From: an uncultured Flavobacteriaceae bacterium | Lineage (GTDB): Bacteria; Bacteroidota; Bacteroidia; Flavobacteriales; Flavobacteriaceae | Length of the DNA: 64,000 nt | Assembly: GCA_965652205.1 (NCBI GenBank) | Contig: CBFGUI010000003.1 | Location: 12,589-76,588, forward strand | Direction: 5' to 3' | Part shown: positions 11,345 to 18,990 of the stretch, piece by piece | Numbering within the stretch: position 1 is the first letter of the stretch | Layout: each line of letters begins with the position of its first letter | Program-made: the position numbers and the translations under genes | The notes under the pieces: generated by a model | Database searches by the model: none | Told to the model about the DNA's origin: nothing | Seen by the model: the letters and a program-made list of their open reading frames with translations, nothing else

Positions 11345-13334
11345 ATTGGGCATTGGCCTGTAGATACTTTATTTCATCCCGCAATTTGGCGGCTTCAATA
11401 AAGTTGAGGTCCCTGGCCGCCTTTTCCATATCCCTTCGTTTGTCCCGGATCATACGCTCCCGTTGCTCCTGGGTCAGGTAATCCAGATCGGGTTCCTTGG
11501 CCCGATGTTCCTCCTTGATGAAGTGGTAGGTGGACACGGAGTTCTTGGCCAGGGCGTTGTCAAGATTCTTGTTCAGGGCCTTGGGGGTGATGTTGTTCGC
11601 TTTGTTGTAGGCGATCTGCTTCTCCCTGCGGTAGTCGGTCTGGTCTATGGTCCGCTGCATGCTTTCGGTGATTTTGTCCGCATACATAATGGCCCTGCCA
11701 TCGAGGTTCCTCGCCGCCCTCCCCACGGTTTGGGTCAGCGAACGGGTACTTCTGAGGAAGCCTTCCTTGTCCGCATCCAAAATGGCGACCAGGGAAACTT
11801 CGGGCAAATCGAGACCTTCCCGGAGCAGGTTCACCCCGATCAGAACATCGAAGAGCCCCTTTCGAAGGTCCTGCATGATCTCCACCCGTTCCAGGGTATC
11901 CACATCGGAATGGATGTAGCGGCACCTGACATCGATTCTTGAAAGGTATTTGGTCAATTCCTCGGCCATTCTCTTGGTCAGGGTGGTCACCAGGGTACGC
12001 TGGTCCAATTCCACCCTTTGTCGGATCTCTTCCACCAGATCGTCGATCTGGTTGGTGCTCGGCCTGACTTCAATAAGGGGATCCAAAAGCCCGGTGGGCC
12101 GGATCAGCTGTTCCACATAGACCCCTTGGCTGAGTTCCAGTTCATAATCGGCAGGGGTGGCACTTACATGGATGACCTGGTTCTGAAGGTTTTCAAATTC
12201 CTCGAACTTCAGGGGACGGTTGTCCATGGCCGCAGGAAGACGGAAGCCGTATTCCACCAAGTTTTCCTTTCTGGAACGGTCCCCCCCGTACATGGCGTGT
12301 ACCTGGGGAATGGTCACATGGCTCTCGTCGATCACCATCAGATAATCATCGGGAAAATAATCCAACAGGCAGAAAGGCCTGCTCCCCGGTTCCCGTCCGT
12401 CGAGGTAGCGTGAATAATTTTCAATGCCGGAACAATACCCCAGCTCCCGGATCATCTCCAGATCGAAATTGGTGCGCTCCTCCAGGCGTTTGGCCTCGAG
12501 ATGCCTTCCGATTTCCTTAAAATAGGATACCTGTTTCACCAAATCGTCCTGTATGTTGCGGATGGCATTCTGCAATACATCCGGGGAGGTGACAAACATA
12601 TTGGCCGGGTAGATGTTCAGGGATTCATAGCTCTCGATCACCTTGTTGTTGAAGGGGTCCAAGGCCTCGATTTCCTCGATATCGTCCCCGAAGAAATGGA
12701 TTCGGTACGCATGGTCGGCATAGCCCGGAAACACATCCACCACATCCCCCTTGACCCTGAAATTCCCATTTTTGAAGTCCGCAGTGGTCCGGGAATACAG
12801 GCTTTGGACCAGCTGCTTGAGCAATTTTGTGCGTGCTATGCGCTGATCCCTTTGGATGGATATCACATTTTTTTTGAACTCCACCGGATTCCCAATGCCA
12901 TAGAGGCAGGAAACCGAGGCCACCACGATCACGTCCCTTCTGCCCGAAAGCAGGGAGGAGGTGGTGCTCAACCGCAGTTTTTCAATATCCTCGTTGATTG
13001 AGAGGTCCTTTTCGATATAGAGTCCCGAAGCCGGAATGTAAGCCTCGGGCTGGTAGTAGTCGTAGTAGGAGACAAAGTACTCCACGGCATTGTTTGGGAA
13101 GAACTGTTTGAACTCGGAATACAATTGGGCCGCCAAGGTCTTGTTGTGGGCCAGGACCAAAGTGGGCCGTTGTACGGCCTCCACCACATTGGCCACGGTA
13201 AAGGTCTTCCCGGAACCCGTGACCCCCAAAAGGGTCTGGTACCCGACATTGTCCTTTATGCCCCCCACCAATTGTGCAATGGCCTGGGGTTGGTCCCCGG
13301 TGGGGCCGAATTCTGATACGATCTGAAATCCCAT
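11343..13334 (-). CDS. uvrB: Excinuclease ABC subunit B
   Basis: PTGDQPQAI, LGVTGSGKT, YYDYYQPEAY beta-hairpin, DESH, C-terminal UVR coiled coil. Start placed at ATG 13334. Confidence 0.98.
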   Translation of the reverse strand: MGFQIVSEFGPTGDQPQAIAQLVGGIKDNVGYQTLLGVTGSGKTFTVANVVEAVQRPTLVLAHNKTLAAQLYSEFKQFFPNNAVEYFVSYYDYYQPEAYIPASGLYIEKDLSINEDIEKLRLSTTSSLLSGRRDVIVVASVSCLYGIGNPVEFKKNVISIQRDQRIARTKLLKQLVQSLYSRTTADFKNGNFRVKGDVVDVFPGYADHAYRIHFFGDDIEEIEALDPFNNKVIESYESLNIYPANMFVTSPDVLQNAIRNIQDDLVKQVSYFKEIGRHLEAKRLEERTNFDLEMIRELGYCSGIENYSRYLDGREPGSRPFCLLDYFPDDYLMVIDESHVTIPQVHAMYGGDRSRKENLVEYGFRLPAAMDNRPLKFEEFENLQNQVIHVSATPADYELELSQGVYVEQLIRPTGLLDPLIEVRPSTNQIDDLVEEIRQRVELDQRTLVTTLTKRMAEELTKYLSRIDVRCRYIHSDVDTLERVEIMQDLRKGLFDVLIGVNLLREGLDLPEVSLVAILDADKEGFLRSTRSLTQTVGRAARNLDGRAIMYADKITESMQRTIDQTDYRREKQIAYNKANNITPKALNKNLDNALAKNSVSTYHFIKEEHRAKEPDLDYLTQEQRERMIRDKRRDMEKAARDLNFIEAAKLRDEIKYLQANAQ

Positions 13335-13420
13335 CCCGTAAAAATAACAAAGGCCTTTACCAAATGGAAACAAAACCCCAAAGTTTAACCCATTTTTTGG
13401 AGCTAAGCCCCACAAGGCCC

Positions 13421-14254
13421 CTAAAGGTCCCGTTTTTTCAAAAGGGCATGGGAAAGATAGATAAAGACAAAGGTCCAGGCCAGGACAATGAGAAACTCAT
13501 ACCAGTATACATGGTAATCGAACTTCATCTCCTCCCCGATCTGTTTTCCGATGTTCTGCACAGCGGAAAGCCTGGTAAAGGGCTCCTTGATTAGATTGGC
13601 CATGGATTCCAAGGGAAAGAAATCCTTGACCCTGGCTGCCATTTCCCAACTCATGAGTTTCCATCCCAAAAGCCCGAAGATGACCTGTTCCAGGATGGCC
13701 CACAGGATCAAAAAGCCCAGGGCAAAGGCGGAACGTTTTACCAACATGCCCAGAAAAAGACAGAAGGAGAAAAAGGCCATCAACTTAAAAAAGAAGGCCG
13801 GAAGGTATTCCATATCGGAAAATATGATGGACATCTCATTGAAATCGGAATAGGCAAGCCCCAAGATCAGGGAGACCAAAAAGACAAAAACTGTGGAAAT
13901 CAATGCAAGCCCCAGTACGGTCAGGACCTTGGAGAGGATGAACTCCTTCTTGGACAGGCCGTCGATCAAATTTTGTTTGATCGTCTTGTTGCTGTATTCA
14001 TTGGACATCATCGATACGATCACAATGGCCAAAAAGAGCTTGAACAATGCGGCCACATAGGTGTTGAAGTGCCAGATATAGGGGAAGTTGAAGATGCCCT
14101 GTTCGGCCAAGTGGAACTGGATGGGCCCTATATCGAATTTAATGGCCGCGATCAGTGCGATCGAGGTCAACAGCACAAAATAGGAAATGGTCAATATTTT
14201 ACTGGCCCTGTTGTTCCAGAGTTTGATGAATTCTATTTGAAGCAGACGTAGCAT
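13421..14254 (-). CDS. ABC-2 type transporter permease
   Basis: About 6 TM helices and a NEYSNKTIKQNLIDG motif; directly downstream of the ATPase gene. Confidence 0.9.
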   Translation of the reverse strand: MLRLLQIEFIKLWNNRASKILTISYFVLLTSIALIAAIKFDIGPIQFHLAEQGIFNFPYIWHFNTYVAALFKLFLAIVIVSMMSNEYSNKTIKQNLIDGLSKKEFILSKVLTVLGLALISTVFVFLVSLILGLAYSDFNEMSIIFSDMEYLPAFFFKLMAFFSFCLFLGMLVKRSAFALGFLILWAILEQVIFGLLGWKLMSWEMAARVKDFFPLESMANLIKEPFTRLSAVQNIGKQIGEEMKFDYHVYWYEFLIVLAWTFVFIYLSHALLKKRDL

Positions 14255-14266
14255 TGGCGGTATGGG

Positions 14267-15163
14267 TTAATTGTTGTTGGTAAGGGCCAAAAATTGTTCT
14301 TCCAGACTTTCCTTTCTTTTGATCAGATGGGACAGGACCAATCCCTTTTGGTACAGGAACCCATTGAGGCTCCCGGCATCCATTTCTTCCTTGAGGTAGG
14401 CCGTAATGGTGCCGCCTGAGTTTTCCACCTTCCCAAAACTGCCATGGCCCTCCAAGGTGGCCTGGAGCAGCGCCATATCCCCGCAACGCAATTCAAAAAA
14501 ACCATGGCTGGCCAACATGCCGTCCACCGGCCCGAAATACAGTTTTTCCCCTTTGCGGAGGATCACCACATGGGAGCACACCTTTTCCACTTCATCGAGC
14601 AGGTGGGAGGCCAAAAGTATGGTGGTACCCTGGGATGCAATTTTTTTGATGATCTGTCGGATCTGGTGTATCCCTTGGGGATCGAGTCCGTTGGTGGGCT
14701 CATCGAGAATCAAAATCTCCGGGTCGTTGAGTAGGGCCGAGGCGATGGCCAAACGCTGTTTCATTCCCAGGGAAAAGGTCCTGAACTTGCTGTCCTTTCG
14801 ATCCCAAAGCCCCACCAATTCCAGTTTCTCCTGGATTTTATCATAGGATACCTCCTTGATTTTGCAGACCAGTTTCAGGTTCTGCTCGGCTGACATATAG
14901 GGATAAAAATTGGGGCGTTCAATGATGGCCCCCACCTTTTTTAGCGCCTGGTGGGTGGTGGTGTTCCCGTCGAACCAGCTGAAACTGCCCCCGCTGGGAT
15001 TGACCACGTTGAGAATAATCCCCAAGGTGGTGGACTTGCCACTTCCATTGGGACCCAAAATGCCATAGACATTGCCTTTTTCAATGGAAAAGGAAAGGTC
15101 TTTGACAGCGGTGAGATATCCAAATTTTTTGGTGAGCCGATCAACGGTCAATATTGTTTCCAA
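14267..15163 (-). CDS. ABC transporter ATP-binding protein (BcrA/CcmA-like)
   Basis: GPNGSGKST Walker A, FSLGMKQR signature, LILDEPTNGLD Walker B. Start placed at TTG 15163. Confidence 0.95.
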   Translation of the reverse strand: METILTVDRLTKKFGYLTAVKDLSFSIEKGNVYGILGPNGSGKSTTLGIILNVVNPSGGSFSWFDGNTTTHQALKKVGAIIERPNFYPYMSAEQNLKLVCKIKEVSYDKIQEKLELVGLWDRKDSKFRTFSLGMKQRLAIASALLNDPEILILDEPTNGLDPQGIHQIRQIIKKIASQGTTILLASHLLDEVEKVCSHVVILRKGEKLYFGPVDGMLASHGFFELRCGDMALLQATLEGHGSFGKVENSGGTITAYLKEEMDAGSLNGFLYQKGLVLSHLIKRKESLEEQFLALTNNN

Positions 15164-15239
15164 GGATCTATCGTTTTCTGATGGGTTTGCAGTAACTTGA
15201 CGACAATTGAGTAAAATTGTTACAAAATTGTCCGTACCA

Positions 15240-16310
15240 ATGTCCGAAGAAAAGTTGATGTCCAAGAAAAAACCCGCTTTTCCGGTCCAAAAAAAGTTGG
15301 ATGCCTACCTGCACAGGTACAATCGGAAAATCGAGATTCCCATATTCTATGAGGATCTGCTCCGCTTTACGGGCTCGGTGATCGTATACGATTCCCATGA
15401 CAAGGACAGCCTATGGGTCCGTGTGTTCTATACGGACTTTGATCGAAGGGAGATTGACCTGAGCCTCAAGCAGGTCTATTCGGTCCTGCATTCCGATGGG
15501 ACGGACCGCATCCACGATTTCCTCAGCATCGATGCGGTGGATTATTGCACCTTTGGAAATTCCAAGCCCTTTCGGATCAAGGTGAGGAACATCCTGAACG
15601 ACAACTTCACCTATTTTTATGTCAAGAGGACCGATGCCTCCAGGATTTACGGTTTGGAACTGGAACACATCCTTTCCCCCTACAGTCTGAACTTTCTGGT
15701 CTATGGGGGTACCCTGATCGAGGAGCATATTGCAGGGATTCCCGGGGATGTGTTCATCGACGAACAATTGCCGCATTGCTCCGAATCCGAAAAATCCCAA
15801 CTGGCCAAGGAATTTGTCAAATTCAACGAACGTTGCATGATCCGGCTCTTGGGCGATATGCGCTCCTACAACTATGTCATCGTGCCGGTACACGATTTCG
15901 ATCATGTGGTCTATAAGATCAGGGCCATTGATTTTGACCAGCAGTCCTTTGAGGGAAAATTGAAGGTATACCGCCCTCAGTTTTTCAAGGAGAACTTCAA
16001 AATGGTGGAACTGGTCCGCAACAAATTGCAAAAGGGCTCCGTGGACCAATACAAGATCGAGGAACGATCCATGATGGCCAAGAGGATCATCAGTTCCGAG
16101 AGCCGTATCGAACGCCTGCTCGCCGCCGTGAAAACCGACCCCATTTCCTTGCAGGAAAACATTGATAGATTGAAAATGGAAATCTATGACCTGACCAACG
16201 ATATGGGGTTCAAGAAAAGTAGCAGCATGGGTGAAATCCTGGCCCTGGCCTTGGATTTTGTGCGTCGGAACTATGAAAATGTCAGCATGAACGAGCTGTT
16301 CAACAAATAG
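15240..16310 (+). CDS. Conserved hypothetical protein with atypical (PI3K/PI4K/HipA-like) kinase motifs
   Basis: GNSKP, FYVK, RIYGLELE, LIEEHIAG, LLGDMRSYN and AIDFD in canonical kinase order. The ORF itself is well supported; the function is inferred. Confidence 0.8.
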   Translation: MSEEKLMSKKKPAFPVQKKLDAYLHRYNRKIEIPIFYEDLLRFTGSVIVYDSHDKDSLWVRVFYTDFDRREIDLSLKQVYSVLHSDGTDRIHDFLSIDAVDYCTFGNSKPFRIKVRNILNDNFTYFYVKRTDASRIYGLELEHILSPYSLNFLVYGGTLIEEHIAGIPGDVFIDEQLPHCSESEKSQLAKEFVKFNERCMIRLLGDMRSYNYVIVPVHDFDHVVYKIRAIDFDQQSFEGKLKVYRPQFFKENFKMVELVRNKLQKGSVDQYKIEERSMMAKRIISSESRIERLLAAVKTDPISLQENIDRLKMEIYDLTNDMGFKKSSSMGEILALALDFVRRNYENVSMNELFNK

Positions 16311-16312
16311 GC

Positions 16313-17371
16313 TCAGGCCTTTTGTTCCTTGTTGAAATACACCAGATAATAGTACATCTGCCGTTCCTCGTCCCAGCCTTTTTCCACAAACTTTTCAGCG
16401 GATTCCGGATTGATGAAATCCAATTTGATCTGGATGTTGGTATCCAGGTTGATGACGTTTTTTATCTTTCTTCTGGCCTCTGAGACCGCCTTGTTGGCAA
16501 TATCGAAATTGGAGACATCCTCAATGCTGTACTTGGGGCCCTTTTCCACCTTATAGTGTTTGAACTCCGGGATCAATTCGGGGTTTTCGATGACCTCGTT
16601 CAAAAAAGCGGTCTCCTCAAAGGCATCGTTCTTGGCAAAATGGTTGACGGCCCGGTTCATGAACAGGACCTCCTGCTGCTTGTCCTCGGCCGGAAGGACC
16701 ACGTCCTTGGCAAAGTTTTGACAGAACTTAAGATAGTTCTTGGTGTAATAAGTACCATCGGTCAAGGGGGCCAGGCCCAAAAAGTCCTCCAACCAATACT
16801 TGGCATCATAGCGGTTGCTGTCCACCGATAGTGCCTTGAAGCCCGTTTCCCGATCCTCATTGAGGATCAGGCAGCCCTTGTCCAACTTATTGATGTTGAT
16901 CCCCTGTTGGACCAAGATCTCCAAATTGCTTCCCTGTTCTTGGAACTGTAGGAAATCGTGTTTCAGCTCACTTTTGAATATGCCCACGGCATCCACCTTT
17001 TTATTGTCCGATGTCACATCTGAAAAATGCACCACATAGACCTCCCCGTTTTTGATATGGGGATGGTTGGACTGTTCAAAGAGGTGGGCGGCGATCTTCT
17101 TTGAGATTTCATGGCCGTTCGAGGGACTGTCAAAAAGTTCGCATACCAGGCCATGGACCGTGTTGAATTCCAGATCGACCTCATTGGAAAAGCAGAAATA
17201 ATTTTCTTCCTTTTCCCTGAAGGGCTTAAAAAAATACTCCTTCAAGAGCCCAGCGGTCTCATCGTTGGGGGAGAAGGGGGCATCGGAGAAAAAGGAGGGC
17301 TCGTTTCTACTTTTGTTGCCAACCCTGTGAAGGGAAATACTCTCGATCTGTGCGGCATATAGGTTCAGCAT
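16313..17371 (-). CDS. Nucleoid-associated protein (YejK/NdpA-like)
   Basis: SLHRVGNK N-terminus, HLFEQSNHPHIKNGE, GIFKSE and LDKGCLI motifs typical of Bacteroidota nucleoid-associated proteins. Confidence 0.85.
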   Translation of the reverse strand: MLNLYAAQIESISLHRVGNKSRNEPSFFSDAPFSPNDETAGLLKEYFFKPFREKEENYFCFSNEVDLEFNTVHGLVCELFDSPSNGHEISKKIAAHLFEQSNHPHIKNGEVYVVHFSDVTSDNKKVDAVGIFKSELKHDFLQFQEQGSNLEILVQQGININKLDKGCLILNEDRETGFKALSVDSNRYDAKYWLEDFLGLAPLTDGTYYTKNYLKFCQNFAKDVVLPAEDKQQEVLFMNRAVNHFAKNDAFEETAFLNEVIENPELIPEFKHYKVEKGPKYSIEDVSNFDIANKAVSEARRKIKNVINLDTNIQIKLDFINPESAEKFVEKGWDEERQMYYYLVYFNKEQKA

Positions 17372-17438
17372 AGTACTATGGGAAATGGGAAGTTATGAAT
17401 TGGGTTATTGATTTTTTGAACCTCAGTGGAACCTTGGG

Positions 17439-17933
17439 TCAGTTCCAGTTTTCATCAAAGTCCATATCGTCGTAGTTGTCCAACAGCTCGTCGATATCGA
17501 CCTCCGGTTCGGCCTCGAATTTTTTCTCGGGAGGGGAATCGGGCAGTTCCCCAAAACTGAACAAAAGGTTCGGATAGACCCGTCCATCGTCCTTTTCAAC
17601 GATATCGGCCAATTCCACAAAAAAGGTCCACATGCTGAAAAAATCATAGACGTAGATCAATTTCGGGCTTTCCTCGGACAAAACGTCATCCAAGGAGGTC
17701 TCGTTCATCAGGCGGATCTCCGAGCCATTTTCACTCAGGTCGAACAGGGCGATCTCCTCATCTTGGTTCCACTGCTCGTCACAGGTATAAAAGGAAGCCA
17801 TTTCCGCGCCCCCAAAACCGAAGGCCTGGGTTATGGCATTGTGAAAATCCTCCAAGGTATTGTCATCCTCGATTTCAATATCCCTGAATATGTCCTCCTC
17901 GGCATCAAGTATGATCCTGATCTTATAAATCAT
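17439..17933 (-). CDS. pRiA4b ORF-3 / 'IS1096 passenger TnpR'-family protein (MM3350-like fold)
   Basis: YKIRIIL...RDIEI...TLEDFHNAI..AF and YVYDFFSMWTFFVEL pattern; acidic tail. Confidence 0.8.
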   Translation of the reverse strand: MIYKIRIILDAEEDIFRDIEIEDDNTLEDFHNAITQAFGFGGAEMASFYTCDEQWNQDEEIALFDLSENGSEIRLMNETSLDDVLSEESPKLIYVYDFFSMWTFFVELADIVEKDDGRVYPNLLFSFGELPDSPPEKKFEAEPEVDIDELLDNYDDMDFDENWN

Positions 17934-17976
17934 CCGAAATTTTTTAACTCGGGCACAAAGTTACGACAAAAGCACC

Positions 17977-18990
17977 TCATTTGGTAAACCGATGCAGGCT
18001 AAAGGTCATGGCCGCCAAGAGGAAAAAGGCCCCGATCTGGTGGGCTACCCCCAACCAAATGGGGACGGCGTACACCAGGGTGAACACCCCCAATAAAAAC
18101 TGGAGGAAGACCAGGATGACCAGGCTTTTCAATCCCTGATCCTGTAATGGGGTAAGCGGAAATCTCCGCGATTTGACCCATAGCCAAAGGATATAACCCA
18201 CCACGATATAGGCCAGGTAGCGATGTACGAACTGTACCCCGCTGCGGCCCTCATAAAAATTCTTGATCAGGGGCTGTTGTTCGAGGTACACCGTGGGGTG
18301 CATCAGTTTTCCCTCGCTCATCATGGGCCAGTGGTTGTGGATGTGCCCGGAATCCAGACCGGCCACAAAGGCGCCCCAGATGATCTGGACCAATAGGATG
18401 GCCATGCCCACGCGGACCAGGTTCCTCATTTTTTTATGGGCTTCCTTTTTTTGGGGATAGATAAGATCCAGGGCGACCCAGAGGCTATAGGCAAAGGTGA
18501 CAAAGGCCGTCACCAAATGGGCCGCGAGCCTGTAATGGGACACATCCGGACGGTCCACCAGACCGCTCTTTACCATATACCAGCCCAGAAATCCCTGGAA
18601 GGCTCCCAAAAACAACAGGATCAAACTCTTCCCCAAGGTGGCCCGGTCCAATTTTTTCTTGATCAAAAAATAGAGGAAGGGGATGATGAACACCAAGCCC
18701 AGAAGTCTGCCCAAAAGCCTGTGGAGCCATTCCCAAAAATAGATCTCCTTGAAGTCCTCCAGGCCAAAATGATTGTTGAGCAACTGGTATTCGGGATACT
18801 GTTTGTACAGTTCAAAGGCCTCCTCCCATTGTTCATGGTTCATGGGGGGAAGGGTGCCTGTGATCAATTTGTAATCGGAGATCGAAAGCCCGGAATTGGT
18901 GAGCCGGGTGATCCCGCCCACGAGGACCATGACAAAGATGAGAAAGCAACCACACAACAACCAATAGACCACAGCCTTGTTCTTTTTCAT
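17977..18990 (-). CDS. ctaA: Heme A synthase (COX15/CtaA)
   Basis: GGITRLTNSGLSI, EWLHR, GWYMVKSG, YRLAAH, QFVHR and AHQ His motifs. Confidence 0.95.
   Translation of the reverse strand: MKKNKAVVYWLLCGCFLIFVMVLVGGITRLTNSGLSISDYKLITGTLPPMNHEQWEEAFELYKQYPEYQLLNNHFGLEDFKEIYFWEWLHRLLGRLLGLVFIIPFLYFLIKKKLDRATLGKSLILLFLGAFQGFLGWYMVKSGLVDRPDVSHYRLAAHLVTAFVTFAYSLWVALDLIYPQKKEAHKKMRNLVRVGMAILLVQIIWGAFVAGLDSGHIHNHWPMMSEGKLMHPTVYLEQQPLIKNFYEGRSGVQFVHRYLAYIVVGYILWLWVKSRRFPLTPLQDQGLKSLVILVFLQFLLGVFTLVYAVPIWLGVAHQIGAFFLLAAMTFSLHRFTK

Follow-up and report, generated by a model that had tools for sequence, protein, structure and literature searches.

In a 64,000-nucleotide stretch of DNA from an uncultured Flavobacteriaceae bacterium (GenBank assembly GCA_965652205.1, contig CBFGUI010000003.1; the whole stretch is referred to here as the window), an open reading frame (ORF) on the forward strand encodes a 356-amino-acid protein (plus stop) belonging to SEAE1, a family of protein-kinase-like (PKL) proteins. 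Its most probable activity is ATP/Mg2+-dependent phosphotransfer to an acceptor that is more likely a lipid head group or a small molecule than a protein. SEAE1 is one of 20 new PKL families described in silico by Krysinska et al. (bioRxiv 10.64898/2026.09.18.752743, 24 Sep 2026), in which the type member WP_147203046.1, from Segetibacter aerophilus, is presented as a putative lipid kinase structurally nearest to PI3Ks. A reading of the same DNA made without database searches (the sequence-only reading) had proposed an uncharacterized core-genome lipid or small-molecule kinase resembling PI3K/PI4K, and the preprint reached the same conclusion independently. The word "uncharacterized" holds for the substrate and function of the protein; it does not hold for the family, which was named in the 2026 preprint. 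The window protein is therefore a new member, from a new class, of a family known from earlier in silico work.

A BLASTP comparison of the window protein with WP_147203046.1 yielded 46% identity over 334 amino acids (E = 4e-105). In this alignment, the SEAE1 active-site residues K140, R146, D216, N221, D241, and D243 given in the preprint correspond to K129, R135, D206, N211, D231, and D233, respectively. Because of this similarity and the alignment of all six active-site residues, membership of the window protein in SEAE1, as a Flavobacteriaceae ortholog, is established by sequence comparison. The exact residue numbering of SEAE1 is shared by 16 Chitinophagia homologs, and a homolog search seeded with a Flavisolibacter protein recovered Segetibacter proteins, one of which (P0510) was identified as WP_147203046.1 by a cluster look-up. 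P0431, which represents the 90% cluster of this protein, has loci that contain, in order, a Peripla_BP_2 gene, the family gene, and genes for AccD, SmpB, an unknown protein, and PAP2, in agreement with the preprint. This PAP2/SmpB/AccD neighborhood, which is Segetibacter-specific according to the preprint (bioRxiv 10.64898/2026.09.18.752743), was present in four Segetibacter loci (L085 to L088) and absent from the window and all other loci examined; a motif search for it in 80 GTDB loci likewise returned none. The window protein resembles the type member in length (356 versus 370 amino acids), in the lack of a Pfam domain, and in its predicted cytoplasmic location and PI3K-like structure. As in the preprint, some family loci include a neighboring gene for a Peripla_BP_2 ("helical-backbone") ABC binding protein. 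The two proteins differ in that the type member belongs to Chitinophagia, whereas the window protein is from Flavobacteriia and is encoded between an ABC-2 exporter gene pair and an NA37 gene.

The family is large and distinct from those in the databases searched. Three homolog searches, one of them against a set of 5.8 billion proteins, matched approximately 8,000 proteins each. An exhaustive search of representatives clustered at 50% identity yielded 629 clusters with E values of ≤1e-3, and full-length relatives extended down to approximately 30% identity. The Chitinophagia-type pattern alone was represented by at least 579 GTDB species loci, and the preprint reported 7,867 BLAST homologs, of which 39% were from Bacteroidota, and also places the family in Verrucomicrobiota (bioRxiv 10.64898/2026.09.18.752743). 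The nearest orthologs of the window protein occur in Flagellimonas/Muricauda, Arenibacter, Croceitalea, Robiginitalea, and Kriegella (77 to 89% identity, which is unusually high between genera), and Chitinophagia hold a second large clade, with Ferruginibacter, Flavisolibacter, Terrimonas, and Segetibacter among its genera. The window protein had no match above noise in Pfam, NCBIfam, PHROGs, or PADLOC, and searches of PDB sequences with phmmer and with hmmsearch (using a 130-sequence profile) gave no meaningful match; SEAE1 is thus regarded as a distinct family. No kinase-clan or ligase family recurred when each of the 130 aligned members was scanned against Pfam at E ≤ 10. The only domain fusion observed, which is uninformative, was a tandem Zn_ribbon_TFIIB (PF13453) at the N terminus of a divergent member (P0126, 491 amino acids; L092:531-2006).

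Conservation was assessed in an alignment of these 130 sequences (32 to 88% identity). The following residues are invariant: K11, Y23, L24, W59, and Y64 (which, together with L83, are the invariant residues of the N-terminal extension); N107, P110, and R112 in the beta1-beta2 loop; K129, D132, R135, and G138 in and after beta3; E161 and G166 in the hinge region; D170; R202-L-L-G-D206-M-R208, Y210, and N211 in the catalytic loop; and D231-F-D233, Q235, E238, G239, Y244, E251, and N252 in the DFD region and the segment that follows. Conservation peaks in the N-lobe, in alphaE and the catalytic loop, and in the DFD region, whereas the C-terminal helices vary most; such a distribution is expected for an active enzyme. 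The conservation of the Lys, Asp, Asn, and DFD residues among orthologs, which the sequence-only reading had named as a check, is complete in this alignment, with K129, D206, N211, D231, and D233 present in 130/130 members.

The predicted fold of the protein is that of the PKL superfamily. The AlphaFold2 (AF2) model of the window protein (mean predicted local distance difference test score [pLDDT] of 89.5; predicted template modeling score [pTM] of 0.88) consists of the N-terminal extension (residues 1 to 94); an N-lobe with beta1 (95 to 103), the GNSKP loop, beta2 (111 to 117), beta3 (122 to 130, with K129 at its end), an alphaC-like helix (133 to 145), and beta4/beta5 (152 to 162); the hinge (163 to 166); and a C-lobe with alphaD, alphaE (182 to 202), the catalytic loop (203 to 211), a beta-hairpin (212 to 229), the DFD motif (231 to 233), and a helical region (241 to 355). 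The bilobal architecture typical of the superfamily (i.e., a five-stranded N-lobe sheet, alphaC, a hinge, and a helical C-lobe) is present in the AF2 models, and the invariant K129, D206, N211, and D231 fall where they are expected, namely on beta3, in the catalytic loop that follows alphaE, and in the loop behind the beta-hairpin. The superposition on a protein-kinase-like fold suggested by the sequence-only reading was borne out by Foldseek, in which all 50 PDB matches of the window protein with E ≤ 1e-3 were PKL folds, including the JH2 domains of TYK2 and JAK2, Bud32, LegK4, DRAK2, LIMK1, and Vps34. The TM-scores were low (approximately 0.28), and the best query-normalized score (TMq) of 0.41 was obtained for Vps34. 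As this ranking was ambiguous, a second family member (P0130; 39% identical) was modeled (pLDDT, 93.0; pTM, 0.91). This model had 206 PDB matches with E ≤ 1e-3, of which the best 50 listed were all PKL folds, and its top matches were PI3Kbeta (E = 1.3e-5), Vps34 (3.5e-5; TMq, 0.39), SMG1 (4.5e-5), and Bud32 (5.3e-5). Named matches in the viral library (BFVD) were almost exclusively annotated protein kinases. According to these models, the nearest solved structures are those of the PI3K/PI4K/PIKK superfamily, followed by Bud32-type minimal kinases, all of which are distant.

The positions of the active-site motifs are given in Table 1. All six motifs named in the sequence-only reading are present in the order given there; the position of GNSKP was exact, and the starts of FYVK (placed at 15618), LLGDMRSYN (placed at 15852, i.e., from G205), and AIDFD (placed at 15927) were off by an immaterial 3 to 6 nucleotides. 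In the beta1-beta2 loop, position 109 is M, I, K, or V. The K-x-x-D-x-S-R element that includes the invariant K129, D132, and R135 corresponds to K140/R146 of SEAE1. E140 and E142 on the alphaC-equivalent helix are retained in 120/130 and 128/130 homologs, respectively, and H163 of the hinge is retained in 127/130. D206 and N211, which putatively act as the catalytic base and as an Mg ligand, respectively, show the canonical D+5=N spacing. In 76 of 78 loci, the catalytic Asp and the first Asp of DFD are 25 residues apart. A composite pattern, K-x(60-95)-GDxxxxN-x(15-30)-[ILV]DF[GD], matched the six-frame translation of the 64-kb window only once, in this gene. Because the pattern is unique in the window and its residues are invariant in all 130 members, the motif set exceeds what is expected by chance.

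Motif content and invariance, fold, and membership in SEAE1 are demonstrated here; catalytic activity, the substrate class, and the residue roles, the last of these based on the AlphaFold3 (AF3) model in the preprint and on what is generally known of kinases, are inferred. ATP would be held between the N-lobe beta-sheet (beta1 to beta5, residues 95 to 162) and the helices of the C-lobe. Its phosphates would be contacted by K129 (beta3) and R135 (first residues of the alphaC-like helix), two Mg2+ ions would be coordinated by N211 and D231, and the substrate hydroxyl would be activated by D206 as the base. The post-DFD segment, with E238, G239, Y244, P246, F248, K250, E251, and N252, may form the acceptor site and is likely to be the substrate-binding counterpart of the activation loop. 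The AF3 model of SEAE1 with ATP and two Mg2+ ions shows ATP in the canonical pose and the same residue roles, and it lacks the Lys-Glu ion pair, with an R146-D243 bridge in its place (bioRxiv 10.64898/2026.09.18.752743); by analogy, an R135-D233 pair would replace the classical Lys-Glu pair in the window protein. The alphaC Glu assignment that the sequence-only reading made in RIYGLE (E140) is therefore tentative: E140 lies on the alphaC-equivalent helix and is retained in most homologs, but a pairing with the Lys has no counterpart in the preprint model. A lipid or small-molecule acceptor is favored because the protein lacks the activation loop and APE motif of eukaryotic-type protein kinases (ePKs) and has PI3K-like structural neighbors.

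The resemblance to PI3K/PI4K/PIKK kinases is limited to fold and motif logic. Three of these structures (PI3Kbeta, 4bfr; Vps34, 2x6j; SMG1, 7pw6) are the top three for P0130. The motif logic is presumably analogous (i.e., a Lys and, where the alphaC-like helix begins, an acidic/Arg element; the G-D-x-x-x-x-N and I-D-F-G/D motifs; and a short substrate loop behind DFG). In contrast to these kinases, the window protein is much smaller and has no C2, helical, or FAT domain. The established GDRHxxN plus DFG combination is not found; the window protein has G-D-M-R-S-Y-N and D-F-D with the same spacing, the His being absent and the Arg shifted by one position. Several other observations weigh against the assignment as a lipid or small-molecule kinase. 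The support for kinase activity is in silico throughout, for all members of SEAE1. PF00454 was matched neither by any of the 130 members at E ≤ 10 nor by the SEAE1 type protein at E ≤ 0.1, and HHpred of SEAE1 against PF00454 gave an E value of 250 in the preprint (bioRxiv 10.64898/2026.09.18.752743). The "DRH" of PI3K reads "DMR" in the window protein, the similarity to PI3K structures is weak (TM-score of 0.36 to 0.41; root mean square deviation [RMSD] of 8 to 12 Å), and JH2 pseudokinases and Bud32 rank above Vps34 by E value for the window protein. There is no obvious membrane-binding element in the protein, and no lipid-metabolism gene was a universal neighbor across the loci examined. The sole "RNA" run that contains the locus is represented by a flat, DNA-like 11-kb contig, which is unusable as evidence of expression.

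In a serious, though rather unlikely, alternative, the protein would act on a macromolecular partner, possibly in ClpXP proteostasis, either as a protein kinase or as an ATPase switch of the Bud32/RIO type. Bud32 is among the best structural matches of both models (best target-normalized TM-score [TMt], 0.42 to 0.45), and the Bud32/RIO-type proteins are, like SEAE1, small two-lobed PKL proteins that lack an activation loop (Foldseek E values, 5e-5 to 3e-4; TMt, 0.37 to 0.45; relatively low RMSD, 8 to 10 Å). The conservation over the whole length of the protein (approximately 77 to 89% across Flavobacteriaceae genera) is also consistent with a macromolecular partner, as is the gene context in a part of Chitinophagia. 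When the ORFs around the family gene were clustered in 85 loci (80 of which were GTDB Chitinophagia), 24 to 27 of the 80 Chitinophagia loci showed the arrangement clpP(-clpP)-X-clpX, where X is the family gene, on one strand with gaps of approximately 100 to 200 bp (e.g., L007:4514-8532, among loci L002 to L082). These loci belong to a sub-clade of Ferruginibacter and relatives, in which clpP often occurs as two tandem copies, and the family gene could be cotranscribed with the ClpXP genes there. The kinase may be coupled functionally to ClpXP in Chitinophagia. This arrangement is not mentioned in the SEAE1 preprint (bioRxiv 10.64898/2026.09.18.752743). However, it is limited to that one sub-clade and absent in Flavobacteriaceae, Segetibacter, and other lineages, and no universally linked partner gene was found. 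PI3K/PIKK structures outrank Bud32 for P0130. Unlike Bud32/RIO-type proteins, the window protein has no RIO1 or Kdo/Bud32 Pfam match and no KEOPS or ribosome-biogenesis context, and it carries an extra 94-residue N-terminal extension and a C-terminal helical bundle of approximately 95 residues. A protein kinase of the eukaryotic type is further disfavored by the lack of a Pfam match to PF00069, by LGDMR in place of HRD, and by the absence of an ePK activation segment and APE motif, with approximately 15 residues between DFD and the conserved P246-x-F248.

A more specific form of the lipid-kinase assignment holds that SEAE1 proteins are bacterial relatives of the PI3K/PI4K/PIKK kinase domain that serve as housekeeping lipid kinases in Bacteroidota and in Verrucomicrobiota (the latter on the basis of the preprint), with, for example, an inositol-, ceramide-, or glycerol-based membrane lipid as the acceptor; we regard this as quite doubtful. 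An uncharacterized putative lipid kinase that is kept in Bacteroidota is already represented by the "conserved lipid kinase" BT4322 of Bacteroides (PMC12280919), which differs from SEAE1 in having a DgkB/SphK (DAGK) fold unrelated to PKL.

It is very improbable that the kinase fold supports a different chemistry (e.g., AMPylation as in SelO or glutamylation as in SidJ) or that the protein is a pseudokinase scaffold. Activities of these types are established for PKL folds and are noted in the KINtaro paper (PMC10870513), JH2 pseudokinase domains head the E-value list for the window protein, and the classical Lys-Glu ion pair may be absent, as in the AF3 model of the preprint. By contrast, the invariance of the Lys, the catalytic Asp, the Asn, and the DFG-equivalent Asp in 130/130 members is atypical of pseudokinases, and ATP takes the canonical pose in the same AF3 model.

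Two further identities are effectively refuted. A HipA/CtkA-like toxin kinase, a label that the sequence-only reading had included and that did not survive, shares with the window protein a PKL-derived fold and a loose D-x-x-x-x-N resemblance in the catalytic loop; against it, neither HipA_C nor HipA_N (PF07804/PF07805) was matched at E ≤ 10 in the 130 members, the 50 best PDB matches listed for each model include no HipA or CtkA structure, there is no HipB-like or other small partner gene and no adjacent small helix-turn-helix gene, PADLOC gave no match, and the locus is a syntenic housekeeping locus rather than a mobile or toxin-antitoxin one. An RNA ligase/nucleotidyltransferase or an ATP-grasp enzyme is suggested by the UniRef names of three orthologs (P0016, P0028, and P0064; "T4 RNA ligase 1-like N-terminal domain-containing protein" or "RNA ligase") and by the LIEEHIxG hinge, which we take to be only superficially similar to ATP-grasp motifs, but RNA_lig_T4_1 (PF09511) and other ligase families were found at E ≤ 10 neither in these three proteins nor in the 130 members, the KxDG adenylation motif is absent from the window protein, and neither a ligase nor an ATP-grasp structure appears in the 50 best PDB matches listed for each model. 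The UniRef label looks like a propagated misannotation.

The genomic context of the family varies among lineages. In Flavobacteriaceae, the gene is syntenically located between the ABC-2 exporter pair and an NA37/PRiA4_ORF3/ctaA/CCA-polymerase segment, whereas the Chitinophagia homologs have wholly different neighbors. Besides clpP and clpX, the housekeeping neighbors specific to other sub-clades include an amidohydrolase gene with X-ligA (23 loci), purA, and a gene for a CBS-domain pyridoxal phosphate (PLP) enzyme, and Peripla_BP_2 lies directly upstream of the family gene in nine loci. The accD gene is directly downstream in Segetibacter (L085:8590-9501), and accC and accB are located approximately 1.4 kb upstream in the divergent lineage of P0129 (L090:1737-3604). 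The presence of acc genes near the family gene in these two distant lineages may reflect a weak link to fatty-acid synthesis or a coincidence. No universal partner, antitoxin, or defense context was found across the loci examined.

In the window, the immediate neighborhood is as the sequence-only reading had described it: the gene is divergent from genes for an ABC ATPase and an ABC-2 permease, has no HipB-like neighbor, and is followed, 2 bp after its stop codon (16310), by an NA37 gene (PF04245, E = 5e-56; from 16313), with which it is convergent. The ABC exporter was considered as a partner and rejected, as it is divergent and its linkage is conserved within Flavobacteriaceae only. The speculation that the nucleoid-associated protein NA37 is the substrate is likewise unsupported: the two genes are convergent, and their synteny is confined to Flavobacteriaceae, is not seen in Chitinophagia, and is broken in Robiginitalea (L003), where two inserted genes separate them. 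A PRiA4_ORF3-like protein (PF07929; 164 amino acids; 17439-17933, reverse strand) is encoded directly downstream of the NA37 gene, and NA37, PRiA4_ORF3, and ctaA are syntenic in Arenibacter and Robiginitalea. The other genes of the window are housekeeping genes (guaB, sucC, uvrB, ctaA, and those for CCA/poly(A) polymerase, SecA, an ABC-F protein, and RecQ), the GC content of the locus is ordinary, and an Rfam scan of the window yielded no family at the gathering score (i.e., no tRNA, riboswitch, or small RNA family).

The start codon of the SEAE1 gene is likely ATG 15240. The ORF list offers TTG 15207 as an alternative, and the ATG is preferred because M1 and the element M7-S8-x-K10-K11-P12 are invariant in 19 Flavobacteriaceae orthologs. 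The protein was predicted from its sequence to be intracellular, and this stood: no transmembrane segment was found (maximum Kyte-Doolittle value in a 19-residue window, 1.04), and the N terminus does not resemble a signal peptide. The N-terminal extension comprises two short helices, a beta-hairpin (45 to 50/56 to 63), and a long helix (66 to 84) in the AF2 model, and Pfam gave only subthreshold Tudor/KOW-like noise on the hairpin. The mechanically called ORF of the ABC ATPase (14267-15265, reverse strand; 332 amino acids; TTG start) overlaps the start of the SEAE1 gene by 26 bp. This gene more probably starts at the in-frame TTG 15163 (298 amino acids), because the orthologs have 299 to 303 amino acids and gaps of 77 to 79 bp. 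Scanning for promoters and terminators gave results no better than chance, with no sigma-70 match in the divergent intergenic region; the sigma-70 consensus is inapplicable to Bacteroidota.

Table 1. Coordinates of the SEAE1-family gene, its predicted elements, and the adjacent intergenic region (window positions)
Feature	Position	Strand	Basis
Divergent intergenic region, ~76 bp	15164..15239		Inferred from ortholog gene lengths and gaps; assumes ABC ATPase start at TTG 15163
CDS, SEAE1-family protein-kinase-like protein	15240..16310	+	ORF list, ortholog N termini, WP_147203046.1 match
N-terminal extension, residues 1-94	15240..15521	+	AF2 secondary structure, conservation
beta1-beta2 loop G106-N-S-K-P-F-R112, putative equivalent of the nucleotide-binding (P-/Gly-rich) loop	15555..15575	+	Conservation, AF2
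GNSKP, residues 106-110	15555-15569	+	Motif mapping
beta3 F-Y-V-K129, then x-x-D132-A-S134-R135 (alphaC-equivalent start)	15615..15644	+	Conservation, AF2, SEAE1 alignment
FYVK, residues 126-129	15615-15626	+	Motif mapping
alphaC-equivalent helix, residues 133-145, with E140 and E142	15636..15674	+	AF2, conservation
RIYGLE, residues 135-140	15642-15659	+	Motif mapping
beta5 and hinge LIEEHIAG, residues 159-166	15714..15737	+	Conservation, AF2
Catalytic loop LLGDMRSYN, residues 203-211	15846..15872	+	Invariance, model position after alphaE (182-202), SEAE1 alignment
AIDFD, residues 229-233	15924-15938	+	Motif mapping
A-I-D231-F-D233-Q-Q235, putative DFG-equivalent Mg-binding motif ("DFD-QQ" variant)	15924..15944	+	Invariance, SEAE1 alignment
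Post-DFD segment, residues 236-252 (S-F-E238-G239...Y244-R-P246-Q-F248-F-K250-E251-N252)	15945..15995	+	Conservation, AF2
C-terminal helical bundle, residues 263-356, least conserved region	16026..16307	+	AF2, conservation

DNA nearly identical to positions 13000 to 18000 of the window (word share, 0.85 to 1.00) was detected in rhizosphere, compost, soil, landfill, sludge, and fungus-associated metagenomes. Flagellimonas and Muricauda, which contain the closest named relatives of the protein, are known mainly as marine genera, and the source organism appears to be a terrestrial member of this group.

As SEAE1 was already flagged and modeled in the September 2026 preprint, the practical value of its recognition here is smaller; the present analysis confirms the fold and the PI3K-like ranking independently, extends the family to a Flavobacteriaceae branch, describes the clpP-X-clpX and acc contexts, and refutes the "RNA ligase" label. 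SEAE1 ranks among the more strongly conserved protein families without an assigned function in Bacteroidota other than Bacteroidales (approximately 80% identity between Flavobacteriaceae genera and approximately 46% between classes), and the family is absent from Pfam while its kinase active site is fully intact. If SEAE1 proteins are lipid kinases allied to PI3K/PI4K, they would point to an as yet unknown phosphorylation of membrane lipids in these environmentally dominant bacteria and would bear on the origin of the eukaryotic PI3K/PIKK kinase domain. A true relationship to PI3K would provide a prokaryotic root for phosphoinositide-kinase-type enzymes and point to an unrecognized phospholipid pathway.

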